Source: Candidatus Kuenenbacteria bacterium HGW-Kuenenbacteria-1 (GTDB lineage Bacteria; Patescibacteriota; Patescibacteriia; UBA2591; PGYQ01). From it: a stretch of DNA of 64,000 nt. Where the stretch lies: the NCBI GenBank assembly GCA_002839745.1, contig PGYQ01000002.1:21515-85514 (forward strand), written 5' to 3'. The translations under genes and the position numbers were made by a program. Shown here in pieces: positions 24,168 through 58,997 of the stretch (position 1 is the first letter of the stretch; every line of letters starts with the position of its first letter). The notes under the pieces were generated by a model, which saw only the letters and a list, made by a program, of their open reading frames with translations, had not been told where the DNA came from and ran no database searches.

Positions 24168-24328
24168 AAAAATAAATTTTTAGTTTATAGCTATTACACG
24201 GGTTCAACCTGTGTATTTTTTTAAAAAAAACGTCATCGCGCACTGAGTGTCAAGAGTTGAACTTCCGACATTAGCACATTGGATAATAATAAATAAAATT
24301 TAAAATTATTTTAGTTTGTCAAATGTTT

Positions 24329-25987: not shown

Positions 25988-26076
25988 AAAAAAAGAAATT
26001 TTGATTTATAAATTTTAAATTATAAATCAAAAGTAAAAAGTAAAAAGTAAAAAGTAAAAAGTAAAAATATTATAAA

Positions 26077-26646
26077 CTAATTTCCAAAAATTGTAAATTT
26101 ATTAAACGGCCAAGCCCTAATCCATGTTTTTCCTACAATAAATTTTCGTTCTAATGAGCCAAAACCTTCGGCGCTAGAATCAAAACTATGCCCTCGATTA
26201 TCGCCCATAACAAAATATTCATCTTTTCCTAAAGTAATATCAATACTTTTTTCAACCTTATATTTTTCAGGAAGAAATTTATTTTCATCAAAAATTTTTC
26301 CATTAGGATTTTCTTTATTATAAATAGTAATTTCTTTATTAATAATTTTTACTCTTTCTTCGGGTAAACCAATAACTCTTTTAATATAATAATCATTGAG
26401 ACTTTTTGGATATTTAAATACAATTACATCGCCTTTTTGCGGATTACCCAATCGGTAAATAATTTTATTCACAATTAAATATTCGTGATTGTGAAAATTT
26501 GGTTCCATTGAAGCGCCTTTAACATAAAATGGTTGAATCAAAAAATATCTAATAGGAATAACAATGGCTAAAGCAATCAAGGCCATTTGAATAAATTCTA
26601 TAAAAATAGATTTCCAATTTTTATTTTCTGAAATTTCTTTTTGCAT
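26077..26646 (-). CDS. lepB: signal peptidase I (S26)
   Basis: N-terminal TM, catalytic GASMEP box, KR box. Confidence 0.8.
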   Translation of the reverse strand: MQKEISENKNWKSIFIEFIQMALIALAIVIPIRYFLIQPFYVKGASMEPNFHNHEYLIVNKIIYRLGNPQKGDVIVFKYPKSLNDYYIKRVIGLPEERVKIINKEITIYNKENPNGKIFDENKFLPEKYKVEKSIDITLGKDEYFVMGDNRGHSFDSSAEGFGSLERKFIVGKTWIRAWPFNKFTIFGN

Positions 26647-26730
26647 AATTCAAAATTTATAATTCAAAATTTATAATTTCTTAATTAATTTAAAATTTAT
26701 AATTCAAAATTTATAATTTCTTAAGCCATT
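26647..26730. repeat. two direct copies of a roughly 38-bp AT-rich unit (AAAATTTATAATTCAAAATTTATAATTTCTTAA) upstream of lepB
   Basis: Direct repeat read from sequence. Its core AATTTATAATTTCTTAA recurs at about 56520-56550 and about 57060-57100. Confidence 0.7.
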
Positions 26731-27826
26731 TTCTTTTATTTTGATTGTGCTCTTTAAGCGTTTTACTAAAAACCGTCTCGCCTGTTGGTTTTGATAGAAA
26801 AAATAAATAATCTGTTTCTTGCGGATATATTGCCGCATTAATCGCTGATAGTCCCGGATTGCTAATAGGTCCTGAAGGTAAACCTTTATTAAGATAAGTA
26901 TTGTATGGAGATTCCACGCGTGTATCCTCAAAACTCAATTGTTTTTTATCATTGCCCAAAATATAATTTATTGTGGCGCAAGATTCTAAACGCATTCCTT
27001 CTTTTAGTCTTTTATAAAAAATTCCTGCGACAATTTTTCTGTCATTGTTATTGGGCACTTCTTTCTCAATAATACTGGCTAATGTAATAATTTCAAAAAT
27101 TGTTTTATTTTGTTTTTTAATATCTTCTCTCATTTGACTAGATAATTTTTTATCAAAATTATCCAACATTTTTTTTATAATATCATATTCAGAAGCGTCT
27201 TTATAAATTTGATACGTGTCAGGAAAAAGATAACCTTCTAATGGAATAACCGCAAAAGGATAATTTTTAAGCGTTCTTAATTCGATTAATTTAGAAAAAT
27301 TTCTATTATTTTCATTTAAAAAAGGATTATCAGCTAAAAACGAATATTTTTTTAGCCATGAAGAATCATATATTTCTGTAAAAAAAAATTCTTCCCAAAT
27401 TAATGAATCTGTATTTTTATCTGTAGAAAAAATATTTTTTAAATATTTTGCAATTTCTTTATAATTCCAGCCCTCGATAATTTTGATTGTTGTTTGATTA
27501 GGAATAATTTGTCCAGAAATTAAAATTTGAACAATTTTTTTTATGTTCATCTGAGAAGACAAAAGATAATTTCCAGCTTGAAATTTTTTTCCTAATTTTT
27601 TTTGCCAAATATAAACCTCAAAATCCCACATACTTCTAATTAATTTTTGATCTTTTAAATTTTGGCTAATTTCATTGACTCCTTCTCCTTTTTTAATAAC
27701 AAATTCTTTTGGAAGCGCTTTTATAGCTACTGATGTGGAAATTTGATAATAATAATTTCCTAATCCAATGCCTATTATCAATAAAATAACAATAATTAAA
27801 ATTATTAAAACTTTTACAAATTGCAT
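26711..27826 (-). CDS. mltG: endolytic murein transglycosylase MltG (YceG-like)
   Basis: N-terminal TM plus YceG domain. Confidence 0.7.
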   Translation of the reverse strand: MQFVKVLIILIIVILLIIGIGLGNYYYQISTSVAIKALPKEFVIKKGEGVNEISQNLKDQKLIRSMWDFEVYIWQKKLGKKFQAGNYLLSSQMNIKKIVQILISGQIIPNQTTIKIIEGWNYKEIAKYLKNIFSTDKNTDSLIWEEFFFTEIYDSSWLKKYSFLADNPFLNENNRNFSKLIELRTLKNYPFAVIPLEGYLFPDTYQIYKDASEYDIIKKMLDNFDKKLSSQMREDIKKQNKTIFEIITLASIIEKEVPNNNDRKIVAGIFYKRLKEGMRLESCATINYILGNDKKQLSFEDTRVESPYNTYLNKGLPSGPISNPGLSAINAAIYPQETDYLFFLSKPTGETVFSKTLKEHNQNKRKWLKKL

Positions 27827-27984
27827 AATAAACGAAAAATAAAAAAACTAAACTCCTTAATATATAGACTCTATTAAAACAATAATTAAATAAAAAAAAT
27901 AAAATGTCAAATTTTTTATCCCATAAAAGCAATAAAATAACCAATTAATTATCTCTTTTAATCCAATTTTATTCCTTTTTACTT

Positions 27985-28089
27985 TTTCCACAGCTTATTA
28001 TGTTGAACTATGGAAAAAAATGGAGTACAATGTATGTGTAATGGAATATTGTGGATAAAAGTGGGGATAACCCCAAAAACAGTGGATAA
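27985..28089. promoter_or_regulatory. cluster of four DnaA-box-like 9-mers upstream of mraZ
   Basis: TGTGGATAA perfect at 28050-28058; GTGGGGATAA at 28061-28070; AGTGGATAA at 28081-28089; TTTTCCACA at 27985-27993. Confidence 0.4.
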
Positions 28090-28148
28090 CTTTAATTAGT
28101 TTGTAAAAAATTCTGCAAAGTGCAACCTAAAAAACTAATTTCTATTTT

Positions 28149-28574
28149 ATGTTCATTGGAGAATATTTTCATACAATTGATGAAAAAGGACGAATGGCTA
28201 TTCCAACTAAATTTCGTTCTGAACTAACTGAAGGTATTGTAATTACTCGAGGGTTAGATGATTGTTTATTTTTATATACATTAGAAGAATGGAAAAGCTT
28301 GGCTCATAAACTTTCTAAACTTTCTATTTCTAAAGCAAACACTAGAGCTTTTTCAAGATTAATGTTAGCTGGAGCAATGGATGTTCAACTAGATAAACAA
28401 GGAAGAATAATCCTTCCTGATTATTTAAGAAAATATGCGGGAATTAAAAAGAAAGCGGTTATAGCTGGATTATTCAATCGTTTAGAAATTTGGGATGAAG
28501 AAAAATGGGAAAAATATAAAACCAATACAGAAAAAACTAGCGAAAGCATTGCCGAAGCTATGGAAGAACTTTAA
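28149..28574 (+). CDS. mraZ: transcriptional regulator MraZ
   Basis: Duplicated MraZ domain; first gene of the dcw cluster. Confidence 0.85.
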   Translation: MFIGEYFHTIDEKGRMAIPTKFRSELTEGIVITRGLDDCLFLYTLEEWKSLAHKLSKLSISKANTRAFSRLMLAGAMDVQLDKQGRIILPDYLRKYAGIKKKAVIAGLFNRLEIWDEEKWEKYKTNTEKTSESIAEAMEEL

Positions 28575-28678
28575 AAAAAGTAACCAGTAACAAGTACTCC
28601 ATAACGAGTAATCAGACAAAAAATTATTTTGAATTTACCCGTATTAATTTATAATTCTTTTTACTTATTACTTATTAC

Positions 28679-29662
28679 GTGTTGCTTATTACTTTTGTCT
28701 TTATGCATATTCCTGTTCTTTTAAATGAAGTTATAGAAAATCTAAATATTCAACCCAATCAAAATTTTATTGATTGCACTTTTGGTGATGGCGGACACAC
28801 AATGGCAATATTGAAAAAAAATAAACCAAATGGAATAGTTGTCGGAATTGATTTAAATATAAAAAAATTCGAAGCCAAGGAAAGATTAATTTTAATCAAT
28901 GATAATTTTGCTAATTTGGGAAAAATTATTGATCAATTACGTTCTGATGCTAAATTTCAATCCGCCTTCTGGCAAATAAAATTTCATGGAATTCTTTTAG
29001 ATCTTGGATTTTCAAGTCGTCAACTCGAAGAAGATGAACGTGGATTTAGTTTTCAAAAAGATGAATTTCTTGATATGCGATTTAATAAATTAGATACAGA
29101 TTTAACAGCAGAAAAAATTATTAATACTTATCCAGAAAAAGAATTGGCAAATATTTTTTGGAAATATGGGGAAGAAAAATATTCTCGTTACATTGCTAAA
29201 ATAATAATACAAGAAAGAAAAAAACAAAAAATCTACACAACAAAACAATTAGCAGATTTAATTTATAAAATTTCAAAACTAAAAACTAAAAATTCAAAAT
29301 TTAACGCTAAACATTATATTCATCCAGCAACAAAAGTTTTTCAAGCATTAAGAATTATCGTTAATAATGAACTAGAAAATTTAAAACAAGTTTTACCGCA
29401 AGCAATAAAAATTTTAGAACCAAAAGGAAAAATTTGCGTAATTTCATTTCATTCTTTAGAAGACAGAATTGTTAAACAATTCTTTAAACAAGAATCAAAA
29501 AATTGTATTTGTCCTTCTGAATTTCCTCAATGTATTTGTAATCACAAAACAACTTTAAAAATTATCACTAAGAAAATAATTGTCCCAACTTTTGAAGAAA
29601 TAAAAAAAAATCCGCGTAGCCGTAGCGCAAAAATGAGAGTAGCAGAAAAATTAGCTTTTTAA
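28679..29662 (+). CDS. rsmH: 16S rRNA m4C1402 methyltransferase RsmH (MraW)
   Basis: MHIPVLLNEV start, GDGGHT SAM motif. The real start is probably the internal Met at about 28703. Confidence 0.85.
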   Translation: MLLITFVFMHIPVLLNEVIENLNIQPNQNFIDCTFGDGGHTMAILKKNKPNGIVVGIDLNIKKFEAKERLILINDNFANLGKIIDQLRSDAKFQSAFWQIKFHGILLDLGFSSRQLEEDERGFSFQKDEFLDMRFNKLDTDLTAEKIINTYPEKELANIFWKYGEEKYSRYIAKIIIQERKKQKIYTTKQLADLIYKISKLKTKNSKFNAKHYIHPATKVFQALRIIVNNELENLKQVLPQAIKILEPKGKICVISFHSLEDRIVKQFFKQESKNCICPSEFPQCICNHKTTLKIITKKIIVPTFEEIKKNPRSRSAKMRVAEKLAF

Positions 29663-29749
29663 CTTTTAGTTTTTAGAAAATTTAAAACAAAATTAATAAA
29701 ATTAAGACATTAACTTTAAACTTTGCACTTTAAATTTTAAACTTCTTTT

Positions 29750-30070
29750 ATGTCTGTTTTAAAACCCACAAAACAAAAAACAATAAAATCTACATCTAAA
29801 ATAACAAGAAAAATTATTTTAGTTTCAATTATTTTTATGGGATTTTTTTATTTAATACAAACTAATAGCTTAGCTATAAGCGGATTAAAAATTACTGATT
29901 TTAAAAAACAAATAGAAGAATTAAAAAAAGATAATAAACAATTAGAAATAGAATTTTTGCAATTACAAGCTGTTTCAAAAATTGAACAAGCCAGCGAAGA
30001 ATTAAAAATGGTAAAAACTAATAATGCAAAATATTTAAAAGAAACTGGTGAAATAGCTGTAGCAAAATAG
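29750..30070 (+). CDS. ftsL: FtsL-like cell division protein (single TM plus coiled coil)
   Basis: Position between rsmH and ftsI, TM helix, leucine-zipper-like segment. Confidence 0.5.
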   Translation: MSVLKPTKQKTIKSTSKITRKIILVSIIFMGFFYLIQTNSLAISGLKITDFKKQIEELKKDNKQLEIEFLQLQAVSKIEQASEELKMVKTNNAKYLKETGEIAVAK

Positions 30071-30108
30071 CTTTTAGGAAATTCTAACGAACTTATTTTT
30101 TTTATGTT

Positions 30109-31836
30109 ATGAATTTACAAAGGAAAAATTTAAAAAAATTCAATAGAATTACCTTTTTAATGGTAATTTTTTTTATTTTTGCTGGATTAATTATTATTCG
30201 TTTATTTATTTTACAAATTTTACAACATAATTTTTATAAAGAACTCTCTGCAGATATTCACCAAATTTATCAAGAAACCTATCCAAAAAGAGGAGAAATA
30301 TTAATTCAAAAAAAAACAACAAATGAACTATATCCAATCGCAACTAATCGTGACCTATATTTAATTTACGCTATTCCTAAAAATATAGAAAACCCAGAAG
30401 AAACATTTGAAAAATTATCTTCAATAATTGAAATTAAAAAAGAAAAAGAAAAAATTCTTTTACGTCTTTCTAAAAAAAACGATTTATATGAACCCATTAA
30501 GCATTATTTAAGTGAAGAAGAAATGAAAAAAATTAAAGAATTTAATTTAAAAGGCATTAAATTTACCACCGAAACTGTTCGTTTTTATCCTCATAATAAT
30601 CTTTTTAGCCATATTTTGGGATTTGTGGGTTTTAAAAAAAATGAACAAATTGGACAATATGGAATTGAAGAATATTTTGAAAAACAATTAAAAGGAGAAA
30701 AGGGATTTTTAAAAGCAAAAAAAGGAGCTGAAGGTAGTCTTATTGCTACCTCAGAATCAATAACTCAAAAACCAAAAGACGGAGAATCAATTGTTTTAAC
30801 TTTAGATGAAGCGATTCAATTTACCACTTGCCAAGAATTAAAAAATGGCTTTGAAAAATATAAAGCCGAAAAAGGAACCGCCATTGTTATGGAACCACAA
30901 ACAGGAAAAATTTTAGCTCTATGTAATTTACCGGATTTTGATTCTAATAAATATAATGAAAATAAAGATGTTAATACTTTTAATAATTTAGCTGTTTTTG
31001 ATCAATATGAACCCGGTTCTGTTTTTAAAGCTATCACTATGGCAATTGGATTAGACACAAATAAAATTACACCTGAAACAACTTATATAGATACCGGACA
31101 AGTAAAAATTGGGGGGTACACTATTAAAAATTATAACGATAAAACATATGGAAAACAAACAATGACTGGAATTTTAGAAAAATCTCTTAATACAGGAGCT
31201 ATTTTTGTTGCTCATAAAATAGAAAATAATATATTTAAAAAATATATTGAAGATTTTGGTTTTGGAAAATTAACTGGAATTACTTTGCCCAGCGAAAATT
31301 CTGGAAATATTAATTCATTAAATAAAAAAGGTAAACTTTATACTGCCACGGCTTCTTTTGGACAAGGAATTTCTACTACTCCTATCCAATTAGTCACCGC
31401 TTTTTCAGCTATTGCCAATCAAGGACAATTAATGAAACCTTATCTCGTGGATAAAATTATAAAAAATGACAATGAAGAATTTAAAACAAATCCACAAATA
31501 ATAAAACAAGTTATTTCTCCAAAAACAGCTATACTTTTAAGTGGTATGTTAACTTCTGTGGTAAAAAAAGGATGCGGAAAAAACGCTGGAGTAAAAAATT
31601 ATTATTTAGCTGGCAAAACAGGCACGGCTCAAGTTTCAGCCAAAGACAAAAAAGGTTATTCTAATGAAACAATTCAAACTTTTATTGGCTTCGGGCCAGT
31701 AGATAATCCTCGTTTTGCTATTATAGTTAAATTAGACAAACCACATGCAGTAGATGCTTCGGTTTCTGTGGCTCCTATTTTTAGTAAAATAGCAGAATTT
31801 ATTTTAAATTATTATCAAATCCCACCAGAAAATTAA
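30109..31836 (+). CDS. ftsI: penicillin-binding protein 2/3 family transpeptidase (FtsI-like)
   Basis: SVFK (SxxK), SLN (SxN), KTGTA (KTG) motifs and N-terminal TM. Confidence 0.8.
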   Translation: MNLQRKNLKKFNRITFLMVIFFIFAGLIIIRLFILQILQHNFYKELSADIHQIYQETYPKRGEILIQKKTTNELYPIATNRDLYLIYAIPKNIENPEETFEKLSSIIEIKKEKEKILLRLSKKNDLYEPIKHYLSEEEMKKIKEFNLKGIKFTTETVRFYPHNNLFSHILGFVGFKKNEQIGQYGIEEYFEKQLKGEKGFLKAKKGAEGSLIATSESITQKPKDGESIVLTLDEAIQFTTCQELKNGFEKYKAEKGTAIVMEPQTGKILALCNLPDFDSNKYNENKDVNTFNNLAVFDQYEPGSVFKAITMAIGLDTNKITPETTYIDTGQVKIGGYTIKNYNDKTYGKQTMTGILEKSLNTGAIFVAHKIENNIFKKYIEDFGFGKLTGITLPSENSGNINSLNKKGKLYTATASFGQGISTTPIQLVTAFSAIANQGQLMKPYLVDKIIKNDNEEFKTNPQIIKQVISPKTAILLSGMLTSVVKKGCGKNAGVKNYYLAGKTGTAQVSAKDKKGYSNETIQTFIGFGPVDNPRFAIIVKLDKPHAVDASVSVAPIFSKIAEFILNYYQIPPEN

Positions 31837-31886
31837 CTTTTAGCTTTTAGAAAATTCTAAGAAACTAAAAGCTAGAAAGCTAATTT

Positions 31887-32312
31887 ATGATAGAAATTTA
31901 TAATCAAACCAAACAAAAAATAAATAAAAAAGCGATTGAAAAAATTGTTCAAAAAATTGTTCAAAAAATAAAGTTTAAAGAAAAAATAGAAGTCTCTATT
32001 ATTTTTGTTGGAGAAAAAAAAATTAAACAATTAAATAAACAATATCGAAAAATAAATAAAGCAACAGATGTTTTAAGTTTTGGATTTTGGAAATTAGAAA
32101 AAACACAAACTAATTTTGGAGAAATTTTTATTTATTATCAAAAAATAAAAAAACAAGCAAAAATATTTAAACATAGCATTTCTCAAGAATTGAAAATAAT
32201 TTTAATTCATAGTATATTACATCTATTAGGATATGATCATGAAACAGAAAAAGACTGGGGAAAAATGAGAAAAATGGAAAAGAAAATTTTAATAGTAACA
32301 AGTAATCCGTAA
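31887..32312 (+). CDS. ybeY: rRNA maturation endoribonuclease YbeY
   Basis: HSILHLLGYDH metal-binding motif. Confidence 0.8.
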   Translation: MIEIYNQTKQKINKKAIEKIVQKIVQKIKFKEKIEVSIIFVGEKKIKQLNKQYRKINKATDVLSFGFWKLEKTQTNFGEIFIYYQKIKKQAKIFKHSISQELKIILIHSILHLLGYDHETEKDWGKMRKMEKKILIVTSNP

Positions 32313-32368
32313 TCAGTAACAAGTAAAAATCAAAAAAAATATTTTTCATATTACTGATTACTCATCTT

Positions 32369-32734
32369 ATGGTTTTTTATTTTAAAAAATTTTTAAAAAG
32401 TTTTGAACATTCTTTTAGAGGATTAAAAAATGCATTGATTTGGGAACAAAATCTTAAAATTCAATTATGTGTTTCTTTTATTGTTATTTTTTTAATGTTT
32501 TATTTCCCAACTAGAAATTTAGAAAAAGTCGCTTTAATTTTAGTTATAGCCGCTGTTTTAATTTTAGAATTAATTAATACTATTTTTGAAAGACTTTCTG
32601 ATATTTTAAAACCGCGTATTCATGATTATATAAAAGACATCAAAGATATTATGGCTGCAACAGTTTTAATTGCTTCCATCTGTGCCATAATTATTGGATT
32701 ACTTATTTTAGGACCATACTTTATGAAATTATAA
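32369..32734 (+). CDS. dgkA: diacylglycerol/undecaprenol kinase (DgkA family)
   Basis: 121 aa, three TM helices, conserved ybeY-dgkA neighbourhood. Confidence 0.6.
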   Translation: MVFYFKKFLKSFEHSFRGLKNALIWEQNLKIQLCVSFIVIFLMFYFPTRNLEKVALILVIAAVLILELINTIFERLSDILKPRIHDYIKDIKDIMAATVLIASICAIIIGLLILGPYFMKL

Positions 32735-32856
32735 ATTATAAATTATAAATTAAAGATTTTAAATTAAAGATTTTAAATATTGTGTTTCTTTAAAACAAGA
32801 GTATAATAATTACAAAATCTAAAAATTAATTTTTAAAGCTAACAGCTATTAAATTT

Positions 32857-34095
32857 ATGCAACAAAAAATTATTACAGGAATTGATATTGGCTCATCTAG
32901 TATCCGCATAGTTATTGGACAATTTGATATTAATGAACAAATTCAAATTATCTGCGCTATTGAAGGCCCAAATAATGGAATGAACCGAGGGGTAATCACT
33001 AACATTGAGGATGCTGTTTCTAGTATTTCTTCTGTTTTAGAAAAAACAGAAAGAATAACAGGAACGCCTATTGAACATGCTTTTGTAGGAATTTCTGGCA
33101 GTCATATAATCTCTCAGCCTAGTCATGGAGTCGTGGCAATTGCTAAAGCCAATGGAGAAGTTGAGGAAAATGATATAGAAAGAGTAATTAATGCTGCTCA
33201 AACAGTAATTACTCCACCGAATTATGAAATTTTACATATTATCCCTCAAACTTTTACCATTGATCGCCAAACTGGAATTAAAGATCCTATTGGAATGAGT
33301 GGTATAAGATTAGAAGTTGACGCGCAAATTATTGAAGGACTTAGTTCACCAATTAAAAATTTAACCAAATGCATAAATAGAACTGGCATTAATGTTAATG
33401 ATTTGGTTTTTTCTATTTTAGCTACCAGCGAAGCCGTATTAAATAAAAGACAAAAAGAATTGGGTGTGGCTGTAATAAATTTAGGCGGAGCAACCACTAG
33501 TTTTATTATTTTTGAAGAAGGAGATTTAATTACTTGTGGAGTTTTACCAATAGGTAGCGATCATATTACCTCTGATATTGCTATTGGATTAAGAATATCA
33601 ATTGATCTTGCGGAAAAAATTAAATTAACTTATGGCACTGCCTTGCCAGATCAATTTAAAAAAGAAGAAAAAATTAATTTAAACGAATTTGATGATAATG
33701 AAAAAGAAGCAGTTTCAAAAAAATATATTGCCAATATTATTGAAGCAAGAGTAGAAGAAATTTTTAGAATGATTAATGCAGAATTTAAAAAAATTAATAG
33801 AGATGGAAAATTACCAGCAGGAGTTATTTTAACTGGAGGTGGAGCAAAATTACCAGGAATAGTTGAATTAGCAAAAAAAGAATTTCGTTTACCAGCATCT
33901 ATAGATACTTCACAAGAAAATATTTTTACTTCTGTAGATAAAATTAATGATCCAGAATTTTCTACTGCCTTGGGTTTGGTTTTATGGGGAAGCCAAGCCC
34001 AACAAAAACATAATAAATTTTCTTTTTCAAATCTTTTAAATATTAAACAAATGGTTTCTAGCATTAAAAAATGGATTAAATCTTTTGGAAATTAA
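32857..34095 (+). CDS. ftsA: cell division protein FtsA
   Basis: Actin-like ATPase motifs (GIDIGSSSIR ... GGGA); 412 aa. Confidence 0.85.
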   Translation: MQQKIITGIDIGSSSIRIVIGQFDINEQIQIICAIEGPNNGMNRGVITNIEDAVSSISSVLEKTERITGTPIEHAFVGISGSHIISQPSHGVVAIAKANGEVEENDIERVINAAQTVITPPNYEILHIIPQTFTIDRQTGIKDPIGMSGIRLEVDAQIIEGLSSPIKNLTKCINRTGINVNDLVFSILATSEAVLNKRQKELGVAVINLGGATTSFIIFEEGDLITCGVLPIGSDHITSDIAIGLRISIDLAEKIKLTYGTALPDQFKKEEKINLNEFDDNEKEAVSKKYIANIIEARVEEIFRMINAEFKKINRDGKLPAGVILTGGGAKLPGIVELAKKEFRLPASIDTSQENIFTSVDKINDPEFSTALGLVLWGSQAQQKHNKFSFSNLLNIKQMVSSIKKWIKSFGN

Positions 34096-34271
34096 TATTA
34101 TGACAAAACAAAATAAACACGAAAACACGAAAACATAAGAAATTTTAAATTATAAATTTTGGAAGATTGTTTAAATGCAGAAATCGAACCTTGGGAAATC
34201 CCGTAGGCCGATTCTATGTAATCGCCCACAGGGCGAAAACGTGGTTTCGCCCCTACGAAACGCAAATTGTT

Positions 34272-35149
34272 ATGCAATACAATTCCGAAATCCATCATCG
34301 TCGATCAATTAGATTAAAAGAATATGATTATTCGCAAAATGGCGTATATTTCATCACAATTTGTACGCAAAATCATGAATGTTTGTTTGGAAAAATTGAA
34401 AATGAAAAAATGATTTTAAATGAATACGGCAAAATTGTAAAAAAAGATTGGTTGGAAATCCCAAATCATTTTCCAAATATAATATTAGACAAATTTATTG
34501 TAATGCCCAACCATATTCACGGAATAATAATTATTGACGCATCCGTAGGGGCGTACCCTTGCGGTCGCCCTGTAATTAGGGCAGGGGCAAGCCCCACGGT
34601 TGGGCTGTTCTAAAATAATGACATCATAAAGTTTACATTATTTGTACATTTTTCAATTGTTTCTTGTATTTTGTTTAAATTATTTTTTCTGAAAATATTA
34701 ATTACTAAATTTCTGATTAAAGAATAATTTGCAGAAGCATTTCCTCACGGTTAGGGAAATTAATTAAGCCCCCTTGATAAAGGGGGTTGGGGGATTTCAT
34801 AAGAAAGAAACCCTCTAAATCCCCCTTATCAGGGGACAAAGAGAGAAGCAAACCTCTTAAAAGCCCCCTTGATAAAGGGGGTTGGGGGATTTCAGAAATT
34901 AAGAAACCCTCTAAATCTCCCTTATCAGGGAGACTTTATGGAAGAAGGATTTTCAAAATTATAAATCATTAGTTGCAAATAGGTGTTTAAATATTTATAA
35001 ATCAAAAAATAAATATATGGGGAAATTATAGCAACGGAATTATTTTGAACATATTATTCGTGATGAAAAATCATTAAATAAAATTCACGAATATATTTTT
35101 AACAATTTTTTGAAATGGGAATTTGACAGAAATAATCCAAAAAATTTAT
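34272..35149 (+). pseudogene. REP-associated tyrosine transposase (RAYT, IS200/Y1 family) split by a MITE insertion. N part is about 34272-34592, C part about 35028-35149.
   Basis: N part has HHRRSIRLKEYDYSQNGVYFITICT and the HuH motif (HIHGII). C part reads QRNYFEHIIRDEKSLNKIHEYIFNN, the catalytic-Tyr motif. The two parts are separated by a repeat element that has a near-identical second copy at 58479-58781. Confidence 0.65.
34593..35027. mobile_element. MITE-like element copy A (one clean terminal inverted repeat (TIR), internal 86-bp tandem duplication, degenerate distal end) inserted in the RAYT gene
   Basis: TIR CCACGGTTGGGCTGTTCTA lies at 34593-34611. The body is near-identical to the reverse complement of 58479-58781. 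Internal GC hairpin modules are CCCCCTTGATAAAGGGGG and CCCCTTATCAGGGG. The hairpin unit is duplicated at about 34768-34853 and 34863-34945. Confidence 0.65.
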
Positions 35150-35154
35150 AATTA

Positions 35155-35290
35155 AATTCCGTAGGGGCGTACCATGAATTAGGTTTTAGGTTTTAGAGGT
35201 TAGGGATTTGTAGGGGCGTACCCTTGCGTACGCCCAAGAAATAAAAAACAAATAAAATTATGTAGGGGGCGTATTACAATACGCCCATAC
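35155..35290. repeat. cluster of GTAG-initiated GC-rich REP-like palindromes
   Basis: CCGTAGGGGCGTACC; GTAGGGGCGTAC-CCTTGC-GTACGCCC (perfect hairpin); GGGCGTATT-ACA-ATACGCCC. Related hairpins occur at 34183-34240, 34536-34552 and 36047-36066. Confidence 0.7.
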
Positions 35291-35302
35291 GAAATACAAT
35301 TT

Positions 35303-35617
35303 ATGACAAAACAAAAACTTCAAAAAAATTTAAAACAAATTATCAAAGATCTCGAACCATATAAATCAGAAAAAATAATTCTTTATGGTTCTTGTGCTAA
35401 AGGTGATTTTAAAAAAAATAGTGATATTGATTTATTTATTATCAAAAAAACAAAAAAAAATTTTTTCGACAGACTTGACGATGTAAATAAATTAATTAAT
35501 CATAAAACGCCAATAGATATTCTTGTTTTTACTCCTAAAGAAATAAAAAAACGCCTTGCTTTAGAAGATTTCTTTTTTAAAGAAATAATTCAAAAAGGAA
35601 AAATTATTTATGAATAA
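35303..35617 (+). CDS. minimal nucleotidyltransferase (MNT), antitoxin of an MNT/HEPN pair
   Basis: GSCAKGDFKKNSDIDLFII nucleotidyltransferase motif; 104 aa; overlaps the downstream HEPN gene by 8 nt. Confidence 0.75.
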   Translation: MTKQKLQKNLKQIIKDLEPYKSEKIILYGSCAKGDFKKNSDIDLFIIKKTKKNFFDRLDDVNKLINHKTPIDILVFTPKEIKKRLALEDFFFKEIIQKGKIIYE

Positions 35618-36005
35618 TAAAAATTTAATTAAGGCAAAAGAATGGTTTAAAATTGCTGATAATGATTTTGGGTTTGCTAAATCCAGCTTTGAAGATAAGG
35701 ATGAATATTATGCTCAAATATGTTTTTTGTTTCATCAAGCTATTGAGAAATATTTAAAAGGCTACTTAATTGCTAAAGGAAAAATTCCTCAAAAAACTCA
35801 TGATTTAGCTTTTTTAATAGAAGAATGTAAAAAAATTAATTTAAAATTTAAAGAATTTGAATTAGAATGTAAAGAAATAAATAAATATTATATACCAAGT
35901 CGTTACCCAGTTCATTGGATAGAAGTAAAAAAAGAAAACACCAAAAAAGCTTTTGAAGCAGCAGAAAATATTACAAAATTCATCAAAGAAAACATTTTAT
36001 ATTAA
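35610..36005 (+). CDS. HEPN-domain protein (toxin of the MNT/HEPN pair)
   Basis: 131 aa, predicted helical, translationally coupled to the MNT gene. Confidence 0.65.
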   Translation: MNNKNLIKAKEWFKIADNDFGFAKSSFEDKDEYYAQICFLFHQAIEKYLKGYLIAKGKIPQKTHDLAFLIEECKKINLKFKEFELECKEINKYYIPSRYPVHWIEVKKENTKKAFEAAENITKFIKENILY

Positions 36006-36070
36006 AACTTTTTATGACAAAACAAAATAAAAAAATAAAATTATGCAAAGGCGTATTGCAATACGCCCCT

Positions 36071-37630
36071 ATGGTAATAATTTTCTGCCAAATATTCGTA
36101 ATGGTTTTTTTATTTTCTTCTTTTTCTGTTTTATCTGTTAAAGCAGAAGGAGGTAATTGTCAATGTAATGGAAATATAACTACTACTATTTTTGCGAAAG
36201 GTACTATGGGATTATTTTTTACAACAGAACAAAAAACAAATTTTGAAAATTTATGTGAAAATTACAAAGGAAATTTCCAAAATTATGATTGTCTTGGAAT
36301 AATAAATGTTCCAATATCCACGATAAAGACTGAAAATAATTGTACTAAAGACTACATTCAAAAAAATGCTACGGAAGACATAAAAGCTAAATTAGGTCTT
36401 AGTGGTAAAGGTAGTACTGCTACTATTACATCATGTCAATGGACTGATAATGTTTCTTCATCGCCTTTACCAACATTTAAGACAACAAATCCAGAAAATG
36501 GTTGTTGTGTAAAAACCTTGTCTAATGGAAGTTTTCAATGTGAATTAGTTAATGCATTAAATTTGTGTCCAAACATTGAAAATCAATCTTTTGAAAAAGG
36601 AAAAATTTGTATAGGAGTTCCTGATTGTTTCAATATCTCAATGATGGAAAAAATAAATACTCAACCAGTAACACCAAGCCCACAATCAGAAGCTCGAATA
36701 GAACAAGAAAAAATTAGAAAAGAAACAATGATAAAAGCAGAAGCAAAAAAATTAGCTAAAATTCCTACTATTTGTTGGCAAAAAAGTGAGTGTATTTCAC
36801 CTAATGTTTTTAAAGAAAATTCATCACCATGCCAGTCTCCATATGGAAAATGTTATATGACTCCAAAAGGATCTACTTTACAAGTAGAAATTCCCGGTTA
36901 TGATGAAAAAGGGCAAACAAATATTTCACAATATATTTCTGCAATTTATAAATTTATTATTATTTTAGCGACGATATTGGCGGTAATAATGATTATGATT
37001 GCCGGAGTCAGATGGATGACTGCCATGGGTAATCAAGGTCAATTAGATTCCGCAAAAACAATGATTACAAATTCTTTAATCGGTTTAGTTTTAGCTCTTG
37101 GTTCTTGGTTTATCCTTAATTCAATCAACCCCGCTCTTGTAAAAAATGAAATGAAAGGAATTGCAATGATCCGAACGGAACCGTTGAAGATGCAACAAAG
37201 GGAAGTACCTGATTGGGGAGATATTACTTTTTGTAGAAGAGATTGTGGAAATTATGGAGGACCTCTCGCAACTATTTATTGTGCATGTGGTGAACCTTAT
37301 AAAAATTGTACCGGAGTAACAATAAGAGCAGAAGAATTAAGTGAAAAAATTTGTATTGCTAAGGACAAAAAAGTAATTGGTGTAAAAGAAGTTTCTCTGA
37401 TTAAGATAAGTAATCCTCAAAAATATACAGGGGAAAAAACAATAAAAGCAGTTTCTAAAGATTATAATTGTGGATGGGTGTATATGAAAAATAACGAACT
37501 TTTTTTAGGTAGAAACTGTCATAATGAAAATAAAGATTGCGTAATTTTTTGGGAAGAAGGATTTATAAAAGATGAAGTTCCAATTCGCGACAGCATTATT
37601 GGTAATTACAAGAAATCAGAATGTTATTAA
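36071..37630 (+). CDS. Cys-rich secreted protein with a C-proximal two-TM VirB2/TrbC-like pilin segment. Likely start at 36071, inside the listed ORF 36014-37630.
   Basis: Signal peptide (MVIIFCQIFVMVFLFSSFSVLSVKA). More than 30 Cys. Hydrophobic hairpin ILATILAVIMIMIAGVRWMTAMGNQG...NSLIGLVLALGSWFILNSINPAL. The REP hairpin GGCGTATTGCAATACGCC sits in the 5' part of the longer ORF. Confidence 0.4.
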   Translation: MVIIFCQIFVMVFLFSSFSVLSVKAEGGNCQCNGNITTTIFAKGTMGLFFTTEQKTNFENLCENYKGNFQNYDCLGIINVPISTIKTENNCTKDYIQKNATEDIKAKLGLSGKGSTATITSCQWTDNVSSSPLPTFKTTNPENGCCVKTLSNGSFQCELVNALNLCPNIENQSFEKGKICIGVPDCFNISMMEKINTQPVTPSPQSEARIEQEKIRKETMIKAEAKKLAKIPTICWQKSECISPNVFKENSSPCQSPYGKCYMTPKGSTLQVEIPGYDEKGQTNISQYISAIYKFIIILATILAVIMIMIAGVRWMTAMGNQGQLDSAKTMITNSLIGLVLALGSWFILNSINPALVKNEMKGIAMIRTEPLKMQQREVPDWGDITFCRRDCGNYGGPLATIYCACGEPYKNCTGVTIRAEELSEKICIAKDKKVIGVKEVSLIKISNPQKYTGEKTIKAVSKDYNCGWVYMKNNELFLGRNCHNENKDCVIFWEEGFIKDEVPIRDSIIGNYKKSECY

Positions 37631-37798
37631 AAAACAAATACTTGTTCTCTTCCTATTATCTCATCTTTATTCTCTCTTTCACTCCACTGTGTTAACACAA
37701 TATAAATTATAAATTTTAAATTATAACTTTAAACCTTTAAAATGATCAGGTTTTTAAAAATACCAAAATTAATAAAATAAAATAGAATTTTTATACTC

Positions 37799-38860
37799 TT
37801 AATTAATAATCTGCTGTTTTTTATCCTCTTCTTTTTTTAATTCAAAAAAATCTTTTATCAAAATAAATAAAGTGGTAGCAATAGGAATGGCTAATAACAT
37901 TCCAATAGGACCATATAATTTCCCGCCAATTAAAACAACAATAATAACCAATACTGGGTTTAATCCCACAATTTTACCCATTATTTTAGGAACCAGGATA
38001 TGATTTTCTAATTGTTGAATAATAAAATACAAAGCAATTACCAATAAAGCTGTAACAGGAGATTGAGTAAAAGCTAAAAATATAGCAGGAATAGCTCCTA
38101 TGATAGGACCGAAATATGGGATACATTCACTAATTCCAGCAATTAAAGCTAATAATAAGGCATATTTAACACCCAAAATTAAAAGCCCAATATAGCTAAA
38201 AAGACCTATTGATAAACATAAAATTAATTGCCCGCGCGACCAAAGACTTATTTTATTTTGCACTTGAGAAAAAAGCTGCAAAGTATAAGATTGAAATTTG
38301 TCAGGCACAATGGATTGAATAATTTTTTTCATTGCTTTTACTTCAAGCAATAAATAAAAAATCATAATTAAAACAAAAATAAAAGTAACTAAACCTCCAA
38401 AAATATCTATAACTCTGAAAAATATATTTTGTCCTATTTGAACTATGTTTTTATTTAAATCCTGAGATAAAAATTCTTTAGAAGTTGAAGTAAAGTTATC
38501 TATATTAGAATATTGTTGAACAATAGCAAACATTTCTGCTACTTTCCCTTTCCATTGAGGAAAATTTTCTACTGCTTGATTAATTTGATCAAATATTACT
38601 GGAACAATTAAAACAATAATAAAAAATATAACACAAAATATTACAAGATAAATAACAGAAATTGATATAATTCGCGGAATTTTTTTTCTTTGAAAATAAT
38701 TAACTAACGGATTAAGAGCTGCTGCCAAAATAATAGAAACAACGACAACAAGTATTACATCGCGAATTAAATACAAAAATCCAAAAATTAAAAAAATTCC
38801 AATTACCTTAATAATTGTCAAAGAGGAAATATTAATTGTAAGCTGATTTTTTTCTTGCAT
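37799..38860 (-). CDS. AI-2E family transporter (PerM/TqsA-like)
   Basis: 353 aa with about 8 TM helices and an AI-2E-like profile. Confidence 0.65.
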   Translation of the reverse strand: MQEKNQLTINISSLTIIKVIGIFLIFGFLYLIRDVILVVVVSIILAAALNPLVNYFQRKKIPRIISISVIYLVIFCVIFFIIVLIVPVIFDQINQAVENFPQWKGKVAEMFAIVQQYSNIDNFTSTSKEFLSQDLNKNIVQIGQNIFFRVIDIFGGLVTFIFVLIMIFYLLLEVKAMKKIIQSIVPDKFQSYTLQLFSQVQNKISLWSRGQLILCLSIGLFSYIGLLILGVKYALLLALIAGISECIPYFGPIIGAIPAIFLAFTQSPVTALLVIALYFIIQQLENHILVPKIMGKIVGLNPVLVIIVVLIGGKLYGPIGMLLAIPIATTLFILIKDFFELKKEEDKKQQIIN

Positions 38861-38875
38861 AAATATAAATAAAAA

Positions 38876-41206
38876 TTATAAATTAGATGAATAAGATAAA
38901 GATTTTATATAATTTTCCATAAATTCCCAATCAGGTTTTTCATTTTTTGATGGGAGTTTTATAATCCTTTCTTTTAATCTTGTTTGACTAGCTTTTATTC
39001 CATAATTATATCGATATTGTTCCATATTTAAAATTGTTGTTAAAAATAAACCAATATATTTATTCAACTCAAATTTTGGTATTAATTTTTCTACATGATC
39101 ACTTGCTGAAAATCTTTTTTCTTGAAATGAACAATATCCTATAACAGCACTATCAATAGTTAAAATGTTCCCTTCTTCTGTAAAAAAATCATAAAAACCT
39201 CTCACTCCATTATTAGTTGCTTGTGTAGTAATAAAAGGATATTCTCCTTTTCCATATTCTTCTAAATCTAAAATGGAAGTTGTTTTACTTCCAGTAATTT
39301 CAAACAAATCTATTAAATTAAAATTTTTCCAATTTTTTATATTTAATTTAATATTTTCATTTTTTGAAATACTAGATTTTAAAATATTTTTATTAATAAA
39401 AATATTATTTGCTATTTCAAAGGCTAAATAATTACGAACATCTTTCTCAAAATCCTCTTTTGAAATATTTGAATAATCCGTCTCCATATAAGCTTCGGCA
39501 CACCATTCGTCGTTTGCTTTTACGACTTTATTTACACTAAGCCCTGCAATATTTTCGTGATTTTGAAAATTTACTATCCATTCTTTTTTTATTTTATTTT
39601 TAAAATTTTCAAATAAATCAATTCTTCCTTTATTTTTTCTTTTTACAAAACCATCGTTTTTATAATATCCAAAATAAGTTTTCTTTTCTGCAGGATGAGG
39701 TCTCTTTGCTGTAAAAACCATAATACAAGAAACAACATTTACTTTTGAATTAAAAAATAATTCATCTGGCATTGAAAAAACTGCTTCCAGAGTATGCTTC
39801 TCTAAAACTTTTTCTTTCCATTCATAAACTTTTCCTGTTTGAGCTAATGCACTTTGCATCGGAACAATTGCAACACATTTTCCTCCTTGTTCTAAACAAT
39901 CCAAATTATTTAAAATAAATTCAAATTCATCTATATCATTTTTTTTATCTGATTTATAAGGAGGATTGAGCAAGCCGACTGTTGGTTTAGAATTTTTAAC
40001 TTGTTTAATAATTTTTTCATCAAAACAACTTCCGTGAAAAATATTTGTTTTTCCATCTTGATGTATAAACATATTTGAACAAGCAAGAGCAAAAATATCT
40101 GCTTGATATTCAACACCAATTAATTGTTTTGTTTTTATTTCTTTTTCTTTTTCTTTATCACCTTTTGCATCTTTAATCATTAAATTCATAGATGACACAA
40201 GAAAACCACCAGTTCCAGTGCAATTATCATAAACAATACTATCTTTATTTACTTCAACAATTTCTGTCATAAATTCTGTGATATGCGGTGGAGTCAAAAC
40301 TATTCCTAAACCTTTATCACTATTTGCATATCGTAAAAATTCTACATAAAGTTGCCCAAGCACATCAAGATATTTATGATTTTTTATAAAATCTTTTATA
40401 TTTTCATTTATGTCTGTAATTATTTCAAGCAAAACATTGTGCTTATTTGAAAGACTTGTATCTGTTTTTATAAAAGAAAATTTTTGATCTAAAATAGCAA
40501 GTTTTTTTTCTCCAATTTTTCCGTTTTCAAATTCATTTCTAACAGTGGTTAATAAAAATTCTGATAATTGTTTTGGGTTAGTATAAGTTTTATATCCATC
40601 TTCAAAAGATTTATTTTCCAGAGCAATTAAAACACAAGAAAGTAATAATGCTCGATCGCTTTCTTTAACTTTATGCAAATGTAAATTATCATTAAGTTTT
40701 TTTGAAAAATCTAAAAGATTATTAAAATCTTGCCGAAACTTTTCAGGACTTTTTATATAACCTTCTAAATAATCTTTCGCTAATAATAATTTATTTGAAA
40801 AAATTTCAACAGAATTTTTTTCTCCTTTCATTTGTAAAAAATGTGAGACTTTTAATTCTTTAATATCAGCACCACTAACCGCAATTGAAATCACATCATA
40901 ATCTTTTGCTAAATAAGATGAATATAACAAAACTCCATCAACAGCATAATCTTTTGCTTCTTTTTTTGTTTCACTTTGATGTTTTAAAATATCAAATTTA
41001 CATTCAACAACAATTAAAAGATCTGAATTATTTTTGTACTGAATAATAAATTCCGGAAAACCTTTTCCGTTTCCACTTTTAGAGGCAGTATTTAATAATT
41101 TTTGAATTTTCAAATTTTTAGAAGATTGTTCTTCCAAAATAATATCATCCGAATATTTTTTAAAATGGTCTCTAACAATATTTTCTGTATCTCTTTCGTT
41201 TTTCAT
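38876..41206 (-). CDS. single-chain Type IIG-like restriction-modification enzyme: N-terminal PD-(D/E)xK nuclease, gamma-class N6-adenine methyltransferase, C-terminal HsdS-like target recognition domain
   Basis: DLLIVVECKFD nuclease-like motif near the N-terminus. NPPY methylase motif (LLNPPYKSD). The C-terminal about 190 aa resembles a Type I S-subunit target recognition domain (TRD). Confidence 0.6.
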   Translation of the reverse strand: MKNERDTENIVRDHFKKYSDDIILEEQSSKNLKIQKLLNTASKSGNGKGFPEFIIQYKNNSDLLIVVECKFDILKHQSETKKEAKDYAVDGVLLYSSYLAKDYDVISIAVSGADIKELKVSHFLQMKGEKNSVEIFSNKLLLAKDYLEGYIKSPEKFRQDFNNLLDFSKKLNDNLHLHKVKESDRALLLSCVLIALENKSFEDGYKTYTNPKQLSEFLLTTVRNEFENGKIGEKKLAILDQKFSFIKTDTSLSNKHNVLLEIITDINENIKDFIKNHKYLDVLGQLYVEFLRYANSDKGLGIVLTPPHITEFMTEIVEVNKDSIVYDNCTGTGGFLVSSMNLMIKDAKGDKEKEKEIKTKQLIGVEYQADIFALACSNMFIHQDGKTNIFHGSCFDEKIIKQVKNSKPTVGLLNPPYKSDKKNDIDEFEFILNNLDCLEQGGKCVAIVPMQSALAQTGKVYEWKEKVLEKHTLEAVFSMPDELFFNSKVNVVSCIMVFTAKRPHPAEKKTYFGYYKNDGFVKRKNKGRIDLFENFKNKIKKEWIVNFQNHENIAGLSVNKVVKANDEWCAEAYMETDYSNISKEDFEKDVRNYLAFEIANNIFINKNILKSSISKNENIKLNIKNWKNFNLIDLFEITGSKTTSILDLEEYGKGEYPFITTQATNNGVRGFYDFFTEEGNILTIDSAVIGYCSFQEKRFSASDHVEKLIPKFELNKYIGLFLTTILNMEQYRYNYGIKASQTRLKERIIKLPSKNEKPDWEFMENYIKSLSYSSNL

Positions 41207-41240
41207 ATGATTGTTTTTTATAGTTAAAAACTTCTATATT

Positions 41241-41431
41241 GATTATTTTACATCAAATTTTTAATAAAGGCAAAAAGAGTTTTGTGTTTTCAAAGGGGCT
41301 TATTATGGCTAAATTTAATTTATTGGTTTGAAAAATTTCTTTTGCCAAATAAAATCCGTATCATCTGTTTCTAAAAGTAAATTTCCTTTTAAGTATTCTT
41401 TAATTTTATTTAATTCTACTTTTGACACTTT
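41241..41431. repeat. about 190-bp duplicate of the 3' end of the M16 peptidase gene (copy of 43919-44110)
   Basis: Near-identical apart from one 4-bp indel (TTAC). Confidence 0.8.
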
Positions 41432-41445
41432 AATGTTTATTGTGA

Positions 41446-43745: not shown

Positions 43746-43860
43746 CAGACGAGTTATTAAAAATCGGTTTAATAATAAAATTTGCTATGTCGTGGCTAAC
43801 ATATATCTCTTCACACAAAGGAATAAGCGCGATTTCTATTTTTATTTTTTGCATATTATT

Positions 43861-43915
43861 TTAATAATTGTCAAAGAGGAAATATTAATTGTAAGCTGAT
43901 TTTTTTCTTGCATAA
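43861..43915. repeat. 55-bp duplicate of the 5' end (first 17 codons plus start) of the AI-2E transporter gene (copy of 38810-38864)
   Basis: Exact 55-bp identity; directly abuts the intact 3' end of the peptidase gene. Confidence 0.85.
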
Positions 43916-43929
43916 TATTTATTATTACA

Positions 43930-58308: not shown

Positions 58309-58478
58309 AATTTTATATTTAAAGATTATATTTATATAATAGCAAAATTTTTTATTTTTCCCAAAACAACTAACAATGTGCGTTCGAAAAAATTCGAACA
58401 GATTTCGCCCAAAATTTGTAAGGCGGGCGGAATTTTTACCTCATAGCAAACTTGCTTTGCTTCGGGGCACCTTAAACC

Positions 58479-58781
58479 CCACGGTTGGGCTGTTCTACAA
58501 AAAATAAAAATAATTTTGAAAATCCTTCTTTCATAAAGTCTCCCTGATAAGGGAGATTTAGAGGGTTTCTTAATTTCTGAAATCCCCCAACCCCCTTTAT
58601 CAAGGGGGCTAATTAATTTCCCTAACCATAAGGAAATGCTCCTGCAAATTATTCTTTAATTAGAAATTTGGTAATTAATATTTTTCTAAAAAATAATTTA
58701 AACAAAATACAAGAAACAATTGAAAAATATACAAATAATGTAAAATTTATGATGCCATTATTTTAGAACATCCCAACCGTA
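58479..58781. mobile_element. MITE-like element copy B (303 bp) with 18-19 bp terminal inverted repeats and a 9-bp target-site duplication
   Basis: Left TIR CCACGGTTGGGCTGTTCTA at 58479-58497. Right TIR TAGAACATCCCAACCGTA at 58764-58781. Flanking direct repeat CCTTAAACC at 58470-58478 and 58782-58790. No ORF inside. Confidence 0.75.
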
Positions 58782-58997
58782 CCTTAAACCCAAAAAGATA
58801 AAAAAAGCTAGACACACTTTTATGAACGGTCCCGTAAATTGGTCATGCCGAAAATCTTTTAGCCCCATCATTGCCGAACCTTCTATAACAAGATCAAGCA
58901 TTTTCATTTCCAATTTCGAAAATTTTTCGTTAGGTGCAAGAGTGTATTCAAAAAGAGCAATTTTACCACCGGGCTTCAAAATTCTAAAAAATTCCAA
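58758..58997 (-). pseudogene. C-terminal fragment of a SAM-dependent methyltransferase, truncated, with MITE B overlapping its 3' end
   Basis: ILKPGGKIALFEY motif typical of class I methyltransferases downstream of motif I. No N-terminal SAM-binding GxGxG region. Adjacent to tRNA-Ser. Confidence 0.45.

Follow-up and report, generated by a model that had tools for sequence, protein, structure and literature searches.

A transposase pseudogene, probably interrupted by a miniature inverted-repeat element, in Candidatus Kuenenbacteria bacterium HGW-Kuenenbacteria-1

Is the short reading frame at 34272-34613 of this DNA a protein gene in its own right, or the front half of a gene that a mobile element has broken? 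The window analysed here is a 64-kb stretch from Candidatus Kuenenbacteria bacterium HGW-Kuenenbacteria-1 with a G+C content of 27.8%, and the copy counts, the distribution of repetitive extragenic palindrome (REP) units and the number of REP-associated tyrosine transposase (RAYT) loci given below all refer to this window. The 113-aa product of 34272-34613 is deposited as P0001, hypothetical protein CVV26_00995 (100% match). Very probably, 34272-35151 is one dead RAYT-like gene of the TnpA_REP-like Y1/HUH kind that was interrupted by a miniature inverted-repeat transposable element (MITE) and was further damaged by a deletion and a TAG codon. The initial annotation had proposed that a MITE present elsewhere in the window has a second copy here, which splits a RAYT-type gene, and homologues, an intact orthologous locus and a target-site duplication bear this out; its account of the far end of the insert and of the restored protein has to be replaced. 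The same 113-aa product was traced by exact-protein look-up to two further assemblies, L082 (ENA ERZ27239245) and L083 (GCA_017973855.1), which are sister assemblies of the same strain as the window. The other sequences compared are L084 (GCA_043822485.1), another Kuenenbacteria metagenome-assembled genome (MAG) that is ~85% identical to the window's genome, and L085, a Logan contig. The closest full-length RAYT-like homologue is P0008 (185 aa), and the intact orthologue in L084 is P0002 (179 aa). The parts of the broken gene are as follows.

34272..34595, plus strand: RAYT-like 5' fragment, codons 1-108, MQYNSE...HIHGIIIIDASVGAYPCGRPVIRAGASP, identical to P0001
34583..34594, plus strand: left copy of the target-site duplication, AGGGGCAAGCCC, the one that survives in the window
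34596..34962, plus strand: truncated MITE copy; proximal repeat, A+T-rich arm and two hairpin modules kept, last ~30 bp with the distal repeat lost
34960..34963, plus strand: deletion junction with TATA microhomology, window compared with L082
34960..35151, plus strand: RAYT-like 3' fragment, YKSLVANRCLNIYKSKNKYMGKL, a stop, then QRNYFEH...NPKNL and the final stop at 35149-35151; in another frame than the 5' fragment

The 5' part reads MQYNSE...MPNHIHGIIIIDASVGAYPCGRPVIRAGASP and then continues for five codons, TVGLF, to a stop. Residues 1-106 of P0008 align with it by tblastn (67%, E 3e-43), and residues 120-178 align with 34960-35136 (83%, E 1e-25). The 3' part encodes QRNYFEHIIRDEKSLNKIHEYIFNNFLKWEFDRNNPKNL, with QRNYFEH from 35032. 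The HUH motif, HIH, lies at 34512-34520 and the catalytic Tyr codon at 35041-35043 in a WQ.NY.EH context, so that the two motifs sit in the 5' and the 3' part, where they had been placed at first sight. The two fragments are in different frames. Read in the QRNY frame, 34960-35028 gives YKSLVANRCLNIYKSKNKYMGKL, whose counterpart in P0008 is YKSLVANACLNIYKSKNKIMEKLW; it is followed by an in-frame TAG (35029-35031) that replaces the family-invariant Trp before QRNY. Recoding of UAG was considered and rejected, the TAG codon being one transition from the invariant TGG, and we know of no reassignment of UAG in this lineage. Homologues begin at ATG 34272, and the open reading frames (ORFs) 34167-34613 and 34787-34972 are artefacts, as had been suspected. 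The initial annotation had also considered that the native protein might end at ...PTVGLF. It does not: TVGLF and its stop are read from the MITE inverted repeat. TVGLF was rejected as native RAYT sequence and taken as MITE-derived because ACGGTTGGG is present at both ends of the complete copy of the element, near 58.5 kb in the window.

58481..58780, minus strand: complete MITE, 300 bp, 29% G+C; inverted repeats 58481-58497 and 58764-58780
58469..58479 and 58781..58791, unstranded: target-site duplication of the 58.5-kb copy, the 11-mer ACCTTAAACCC

The inverted repeats of the 58.5-kb copy match at 16/17 positions (18/20 when extended), and its 11-mer occurs only twice in the window, on either side of the element. 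The 17-bp terminal inverted repeat of the element is ACGGTTGGGMTGTTCTA. The element is intergenic, ~280 bp from a tRNA-Ser(TGA) gene (59061-59150, minus strand), and its longest ORF has 43 aa, for which no homologue was found among 5.8 billion proteins. Rfam returned no match for it, only sub-threshold noise. Folded as single-stranded DNA, it has paired ends and two hairpins inside (z = -6.8). An orphan 79-aa ORF with an LKPGGK-type motif (58758-58997, minus strand) lies between the tRNA-Ser gene and the MITE and runs into the MITE repeat. A methyltransferase remnant was considered for this ORF and rejected, since Pfam gave no support.

The insert in the gene is the reverse complement of this element. 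Its 34596-34834 aligns with 58780-58542 (92.5%, E 6e-97) and its 34862-34962 with 58610-58510 (99%, E 2e-46). Its terminal repeat, ACGGTTGGGCTGTTCTA (34596-34612), agrees in every base with 58481-58497, and the identity extends to 21 nt when the preceding Cs are counted. It has three matches in the window, at 34596, at 58481 (plus strand) and at 58764 (minus strand, one substitution); the chance expectation is 0.16 matches even at 3 mismatches. An identical 19-bp terminal repeat had been reported at 34593. The shared repeat and the left junction are right, and the repeat itself belongs at 34596-34612. The insert had been drawn as ~435 bp, 34593-35027, with a body that is the reverse complement of the 58.5-kb element. 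The body is as described; the right boundary is 34962, and the 3' gene fragment starts at ~34960. What had been taken for a degenerate distal end is in part absent and in part something else: the distal end of the element is deleted, and 34960-35028 is RAYT coding sequence by its alignment to P0008. Accordingly, 34963-35027 was rejected as a decayed MITE end.

The missing end is present in L082. Over 17 kb (window 24272-41347), L082 is 100% identical to the window except for 106 additional bases at the far end of the MITE. These bases, L082 10693-10798, have TATA at both ends of the segment, and the window without them lacks the distal inverted repeat, the second copy of the target duplication and 14 RAYT codons (APTNTVTIGAIIGA). 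They hold the rest of the element with its distal repeat (TAGAACAGCCCAA, a 23-nt insertion, CCGT), the second copy of AGGGGCAAGCCC, and then TGCCCCTACAAATACCGTAACAATTGGCGCCATTATTGGTGCG, which runs directly into TATAAATCATTAG... The complete element of L082 is 420 bp long (10324-10743) with both inverted repeats present, and the 12-mer AGGGGCAAGCCC stands on either side of it (10312-10323 and 10744-10755). At L082 10704-10743 the distal inverted repeat is broken by the 23 extra nt (GCCCAAGGGACCGCCCAGCCCAA), which are absent from the 58.5-kb copy. When the element and one copy of the 12-mer are taken out of L082, a continuous 185-aa frame results that reads ...RAGASPAPTNTVTIGAIIGAYKSLVAN...KL, the TAG stop, and QRNYFEH... 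The reconstructed protein aligns end to end with its family and is 71% identical to P0008; its sole defect is the TAG at the invariant W of WQRNY. Because the extra DNA of L082 carries the target duplication together with codons typical of the family, the state in L082 is ancestral and that of the window is a deletion. The 106-bp difference is read here as a real variant in the population, although it may be a choice made by the assembler.

These data bear on a simpler reading, a clean split in which the MITE spans 34593-35027 with a degenerate far end and its excision restores a RAYT of 147 aa. That reading is right about the left junction and about which element is involved. The translation after removal of 34593-35027, however, gives ...RAGASIATELF and a stop, out of frame, and its last stretch (34960-35028) is RAYT sequence. 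The true distal end can be seen in L082. A 147-aa product would have ~29 residues between HUH and Tyr, against ~69 in homologues, and 147 aa is not a normal size for the family either: the median over 85 full-length homologues is 188 aa, and the restored protein has 185 aa. We regard the clean split as next to impossible.

Could the locus instead be an assembly chimera, in which the repeat misjoined the RAYT locus and the 58.5-kb element and no real insertion took place? In two independent assemblies a break lies at the element or close to it, and the window differs from L082 exactly at the element's distal end. L083 matches the window without a mismatch across 10.3 kb up to the MITE, diverges within it and stops there; L085 stops 26 bp short of the 58.5-kb copy, at the equivalent of window 58806. 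The MITE repeat evidently breaks assemblies of this strain. The left junction, however, is identical in three assemblies, and L082 spans both junctions, where it shows a target duplication and the gene continuing in frame. The gene copy also differs by ~7% from the 58.5-kb copy in the arm, as a distinct locus would. A chimera is therefore very improbable. The diverging path in L083 (10407-10606) hints at a third sequence variant of the MITE, and so at further copies elsewhere in the genome. Exact-protein look-ups for tyrosyl-tRNA synthetase, elongation factor EF-Ts and ribosomal protein S2, aimed at empty sites or more copies along the contig, matched no records.

What kind of gene was broken? 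A protein search with the 5' fragment returned 5153 relatives, of which the full-length ones have 175-197 aa, and several of these carry the Joint Genome Institute name 'REP element-mobilizing transposase RayT'. The HUH and Tyr motifs fall on invariant columns in an alignment of 20 homologues; the window gene is split and has TAG in place of the W codon. The reconstructed protein has 67 residues from H83 to Y150. The median HUH-to-Tyr spacing is 69 residues in the 85 full-length homologues, and medians of 58-67 aa have been described for most subclasses of the RAYT superfamily (PMC6006769). The reconstructed protein passes the Pfam Y1_Tnp cut-off (24.1 bits vs 23), and its best and only NCBIfam match is REP_Tyr_transpos (E 7e-17). 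Against the Protein Data Bank (PDB), the family profile finds TnpArep (4ER8) at E 5e-6. A Foldseek search with the AlphaFold model of P0008 (pLDDT 77) has 4ER8_A as its top match (E 7e-6, TM 0.55/0.62), followed by ISDra2 TnpA and IS608 TnpA.

The Y1/HUH fold is common to RAYTs and to the TnpA of IS200/IS605 insertion sequences (ISs), and the gene might be an ordinary mobile TnpA rather than a domesticated, REP-associated RAYT. Its good structural matches to IS608 and ISDra2 TnpA, the few REP copies in the window and a score below the NCBIfam RAYT cut-off would fit such an origin. P0002, however, scores only 18 bits with NF033573 (cut-off 55), a model that gives no match to the reconstructed protein, and in the PDB search the IS200-type TnpA proteins, ISDra2 included, stay at E ~0.2 against 5e-6 for TnpArep. 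The window contains a single such locus, which occupies the chromosomal position seen in the ~85% identical genome of L084, is flanked by GTAG hairpins and has the C-terminal extension typical of TnpArep. An IS200/IS605 identity is accordingly quite improbable.

The RAYT-like gene has the same neighbours in both genomes. In the window, ftsA (32857-34095) lies upstream and a nucleotidyltransferase/HEPN pair (35303-36005) downstream, and the order in L084 is PBP - ybeY - dagK - ftsA - RAYT - NTase - HEPN-like. P0002 is intact there, between ftsA and NTase/HEPN, and the flanking genes are 84-90% identical to those of the window at the nucleotide level. A tblastn search found no second RAYT-like locus in the window, and no RAYT relatives were found in viral contigs. 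The intact orthologue at this site fits a gene that may be single-copy and vertically inherited and that was hit along the lineage of the window. The downstream pair consists of overlapping NTP_transf_2/Polbeta nucleotidyltransferase and HEPN genes, is toxin-antitoxin-like, is bracketed by REP units and keeps the same position in L084.

Around the gene, GTAG-tagged palindromes are arranged as follows.

34203..34256, unstranded: upstream REP-like hairpin pair in inverted orientation, GTAG-tagged, GTAGGCCGATT...AATCGCCC and GGGCGAAAC...GTTTCGCCCCTAC
34545..34570, plus strand: REP-like GTAG hairpin inside the ORF, GTAGGGGCGTACCCTTGCGGTCGCCC, encoding VGAYPCGRP; 92% identical to the extragenic unit 35210-35235
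35161..35290, unstranded: downstream GTAG-tagged REP-like cluster with units at 35161, 35210-35235 and 35262-35290
~36045-36072, minus strand: further REP-like unit downstream of the RAYT

All five GTAGGGG heptamers of the window lie within 34250-35268; REP units adjoin the gene only, and no dispersed REP or REPIN family was seen in the 64 kb. A REPtron without a REP family has been described for some species (PMC3733652). The gene shares with REPtrons its place between GTAG-tagged palindromes, with one copy in the window (PMC3733652; PMC3479197), and with TnpA_REP (E. coli YafM, PDB 4ER8) the HUH and Tyr motifs, the WQ-N-Y-EH signature and the C-terminal extension; 4ER8 is the best match of the family in both profile and fold. 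It differs in being ~18% identical to 4ER8, in falling below the NCBIfam equivalog cut-off, in being dead, in carrying a REP hairpin within its ORF and in having few REP copies, all of them local within the window. On these sequence features we file the gene as RAYT-like in a probable REPtron layout, a filing that does not extend to the dispersal of a REP family beyond the locus.

How did the element arrive? Terminal inverted repeats together with target-site duplications are the signature of DDE-type cut-and-paste or copy-paste transposition, and single-strand transposition by Y1/HUH enzymes leaves no target duplication. The inverted repeats and the duplications at two unrelated sites therefore argue for a DDE-type MITE, probably mobilised in trans. 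Like DDE-derived bacterial MITEs, the element is short (300 bp) and non-coding, has 17-bp terminal inverted repeats and 10-12-bp target duplications, is present in more than one copy and has disrupted a gene. It differs from them in that no parent insertion sequence was found and in its unrelated REP-like hairpin passengers, whose number varies. Duplications of 10-12 bp are also made by MIC231/IS231 (IS4 family), a lead that does not assign the family of the element.

The passengers are two kinds of hairpin, HP-A (CCCCCTTGATAAAGGGGGTTGGGGGATTT) and HP-B (AAATCTCCCTTATCAGGGAGAC), which within the window are confined to the two MITE copies. There is one HP-A/HP-B pair in the 58.5-kb copy, two in the gene copy and another arrangement in L083.

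34766..34930, plus strand: two HP-A/HP-B hairpin modules, 34766-34834 and 34861-34930, 93% identical, period 95 bp

An 86-bp tandem duplication of the hairpin module had been read here. The module is indeed present twice; the period is 95 bp, as seen by BLAST and alignment, and Tandem Repeats Finder did not report the repeat. In L084 (6557-6601, 6600-6800 and 7180-7430), free-standing intergenic HP arrays with 3 HP-A and 7 HP-B units, at 6600-6800 and 7180-7430, flank a DUF559 gene and adjoin a 15-codon remnant of a second RAYT start, without the MITE arm or repeat. HP-A and HP-B look like a separate REP-like family of Kuenenbacteria that entered the MITE or expanded within it as passengers.

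These hairpins raise another possibility, namely that the insert is a REPIN-like element or REP cluster moved by a Y1/HUH enzyme (a RAYT or an IS200-type transposase) and not by a DDE transposase. The insert carries two REP-like units, HP-A and HP-B, the same units stand free in L084 beside a RAYT 5' remnant, and the landing site of the insert was a REP-like hairpin. A REPIN is an inverted doublet of REPs (PMC3116915), and like the element REPINs are short, non-autonomous, hairpin-forming repeats near a RAYT (Bertels and Rainey, 2011). Unlike them, the element has plain 17-bp inverted repeats at its ends, with no GTAG tag and no subterminal hairpin, and both of its copies are flanked by clear direct duplications of 10-12 bp, which the Y1/HUH transposition of REPINs would not leave. 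Its hairpin units are internal and vary in number between copies, as passengers would. We consider a REPIN-like origin improbable.

Several observations weigh against the reading of a RAYT-like gene broken by a DDE-type MITE. In each copy one end of the duplication is shifted by a single base, and its length is therefore given as 10-12 bp and not as one exact value. Just two copies are documented in the 64 kb, the third being deduced from the divergent path of L083. The 12-bp repeat at the gene site has a length divisible by three and is part of REP-like sequence; judged by this locus alone, a native two-copy state would be conceivable. The reconstructed protein misses the NCBIfam RAYT equivalog cut-off (61.7 vs 80 bits). 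Finally, scans of the window and of genome, metagenome, viral and plasmid collections found no transposase or full-length element with these repeats. A scan of genome contigs (596 Gb) with a repeat of 16 specified bases, a short pattern, gave 80 loci in unrelated taxa with one match each, none of them element-like beyond the seed; a scan of metagenome contigs with a 21-base pattern gave one isolated match with a dissimilar element body; blastn of the element against plasmids gave no match. As no partner transposase was found, it is the repeats and the duplications that carry the DDE assignment.

The history of the locus may be pictured as follows. A RAYT-like gene at a conserved site (ftsA - RAYT - MNT/HEPN), flanked by GTAG-tagged REP hairpins, would have received a non-autonomous element with ACGGTTGGGMTGTTCTA ends in an in-frame REP-like hairpin between its HUH and Tyr motifs. 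A DDE-type transposase acting in trans would have made staggered cuts ~11 bp apart, and repair would have turned these into a duplication of 11-12 bp of the target, a state kept in L082. A deletion of 106 bp between TATA tetramers, probably later, took away 14 codons along with the distal repeat and the second copy of the target, and the loss of the distal repeat would leave the gene copy immobile. Separately, the invariant Trp codon before QRNY was turned into TAG. The gene halves, the element and its repeats, the duplications, the deletion, the nonsense codon and the intact orthologue are observed; the trans-acting DDE transposase and the order of the three lesions are inferred. Overall, this is real but ordinary gene decay.

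Where in the gene did the element land? ISs are known to insert preferentially into REPs (Tobes and Pareja, 2006; PMC1525189). The reconstructed pre-insertion sequence contains a palindrome, AGGGGCA-AGCCC-TGCCCCT, and the duplicated 12-mer is its 5' stem and loop. The gene copy thus resembles the described cases in that its insertion point falls within the stem and loop of a REP-like palindrome and differs from them in that this palindrome lies inside the RAYT's own coding sequence. The 58.5-kb target has no clear palindrome. The MITE may have a preference for REP-like palindromes. As a feature of the window gene, its second in-ORF hairpin spans 34583-34594 plus L082 10744-10762.

Hairpins within the ORF are not peculiar to this gene. 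All seven homologous loci with DNA at hand (25-38% G+C) have a G+C-rich perfect hairpin 10-25 codons past the HUH motif.

L084 5277-5304: in-ORF hairpin
L086 1776-1796: in-ORF hairpin
L088 1774-1801: in-ORF hairpin
L090 1783-1810: in-ORF hairpin
L092 1114-1134: in-ORF hairpin
L093 1107-1135: in-ORF hairpin
L094 1087-1107: in-ORF hairpin

Four of the seven are of the form GTAGGGG...CCCCTAC with stems of 12-13 bp, a length reached in <=1/300 shuffles; the other three have stems of 7-8 bp, unexceptional in length and at the same position. Stem sequences vary between loci, and in L084 and L086 near-identical hairpins flank the gene as well. The hairpin-encoded residues of P0008 (92-109) form a low-confidence loop in the model, leading from the HUH strand to the next helix. 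Among the 85 full-length homologues, the peptide encoded by the hairpin goes together with the helix that follows.

Hairpin peptide xNFxPL, followed by helix FKIGVTK: 37/37
Hairpin peptide IHELPL, followed by helix FKMN.AK: 15/16
Hairpin peptide GLKPAP, followed by helix LKTFSAR: 7/7

This covariation may be plain clade structure. The genes of the window and L084 are 85-89% identical in nucleotides at their ends and differ in the central hairpin and helix segments (34545-35028 vs 5277-5420), where the window has PCG/APT and YKSL, like P0008, and L084 has IHELPL and FKMN. In each genome the flanking REPs match its own in-ORF hairpin. The difference in the central segment could be a cassette swap or clade structure. 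Directly upstream of its intact RAYT, L084 carries a partial duplicate of an internal RAYT segment with a REP hairpin (4879-4980; residues 76-110, 74%).

Intragenic REPs in general have been described (PMC3733652), and K82, a residue of E. coli TnpArep that contacts the hairpin, lies in this region (PMC3479197). In the literature consulted on RAYTs and REPs, no description was found of an in-frame RAYT hairpin that co-varies with a helix. A speculative extension, which we think rather unlikely, is that throughout this RAYT-like family (>5000 relatives in the candidate phyla radiation (CPR), Bacteroidota, Planctomycetota and others) the enzyme's own REP substrate lies in frame, as a GTAG-tagged hairpin that is encoded as a disordered loop right behind the HUH strand and is physically linked to the neighbouring helix. 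The two would make up a swappable cassette of hairpin and recognition helix that sets REP specificity or allows action on its own gene or mRNA, and the MITE would have used the in-ORF hairpin as a landing site. Should the observation of conserved in-frame REP hairpins that co-vary with the helix hold up, it could matter more than the broken gene, as a way to study how a RAYT selects its REPs.

As it stands, the finding matters little, being one further transposase pseudogene broken by a MITE. It does correct an annotation, since the 113-aa 'hypothetical protein' on deposit consists of the front half of a RAYT and five codons read from the MITE repeat. It also puts on record, for a CPR/Patescibacteria genome, a MITE that has inverted repeats and a target duplication; no earlier report of one was found in the literature searched. 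Assemblies of one population disagree exactly at the MITE, which calls for caution among users of MAGs.

Two further features of the window were noted. Direct repeats that are 97-98% identical (41248-41441 and 43925-44122; 38802-38862 and 43855-43915) lie beside a gene with N6_Mtase and Methylase_S domains (38876-41206) and may be duplicated segments of a specificity subunit; the L082 contig ends at this direct repeat. In addition, an A+T-only motif, TTTATAATTT / AAATTATAAATT, recurs in many intergenic regions on both strands, at the following sites.

25993-26032: A+T-only motif
26646-26725: A+T-only motif
32721-32776: A+T-only motif
37692-37733: A+T-only motif
50134-50193: A+T-only motif
57041-57110: A+T-only motif

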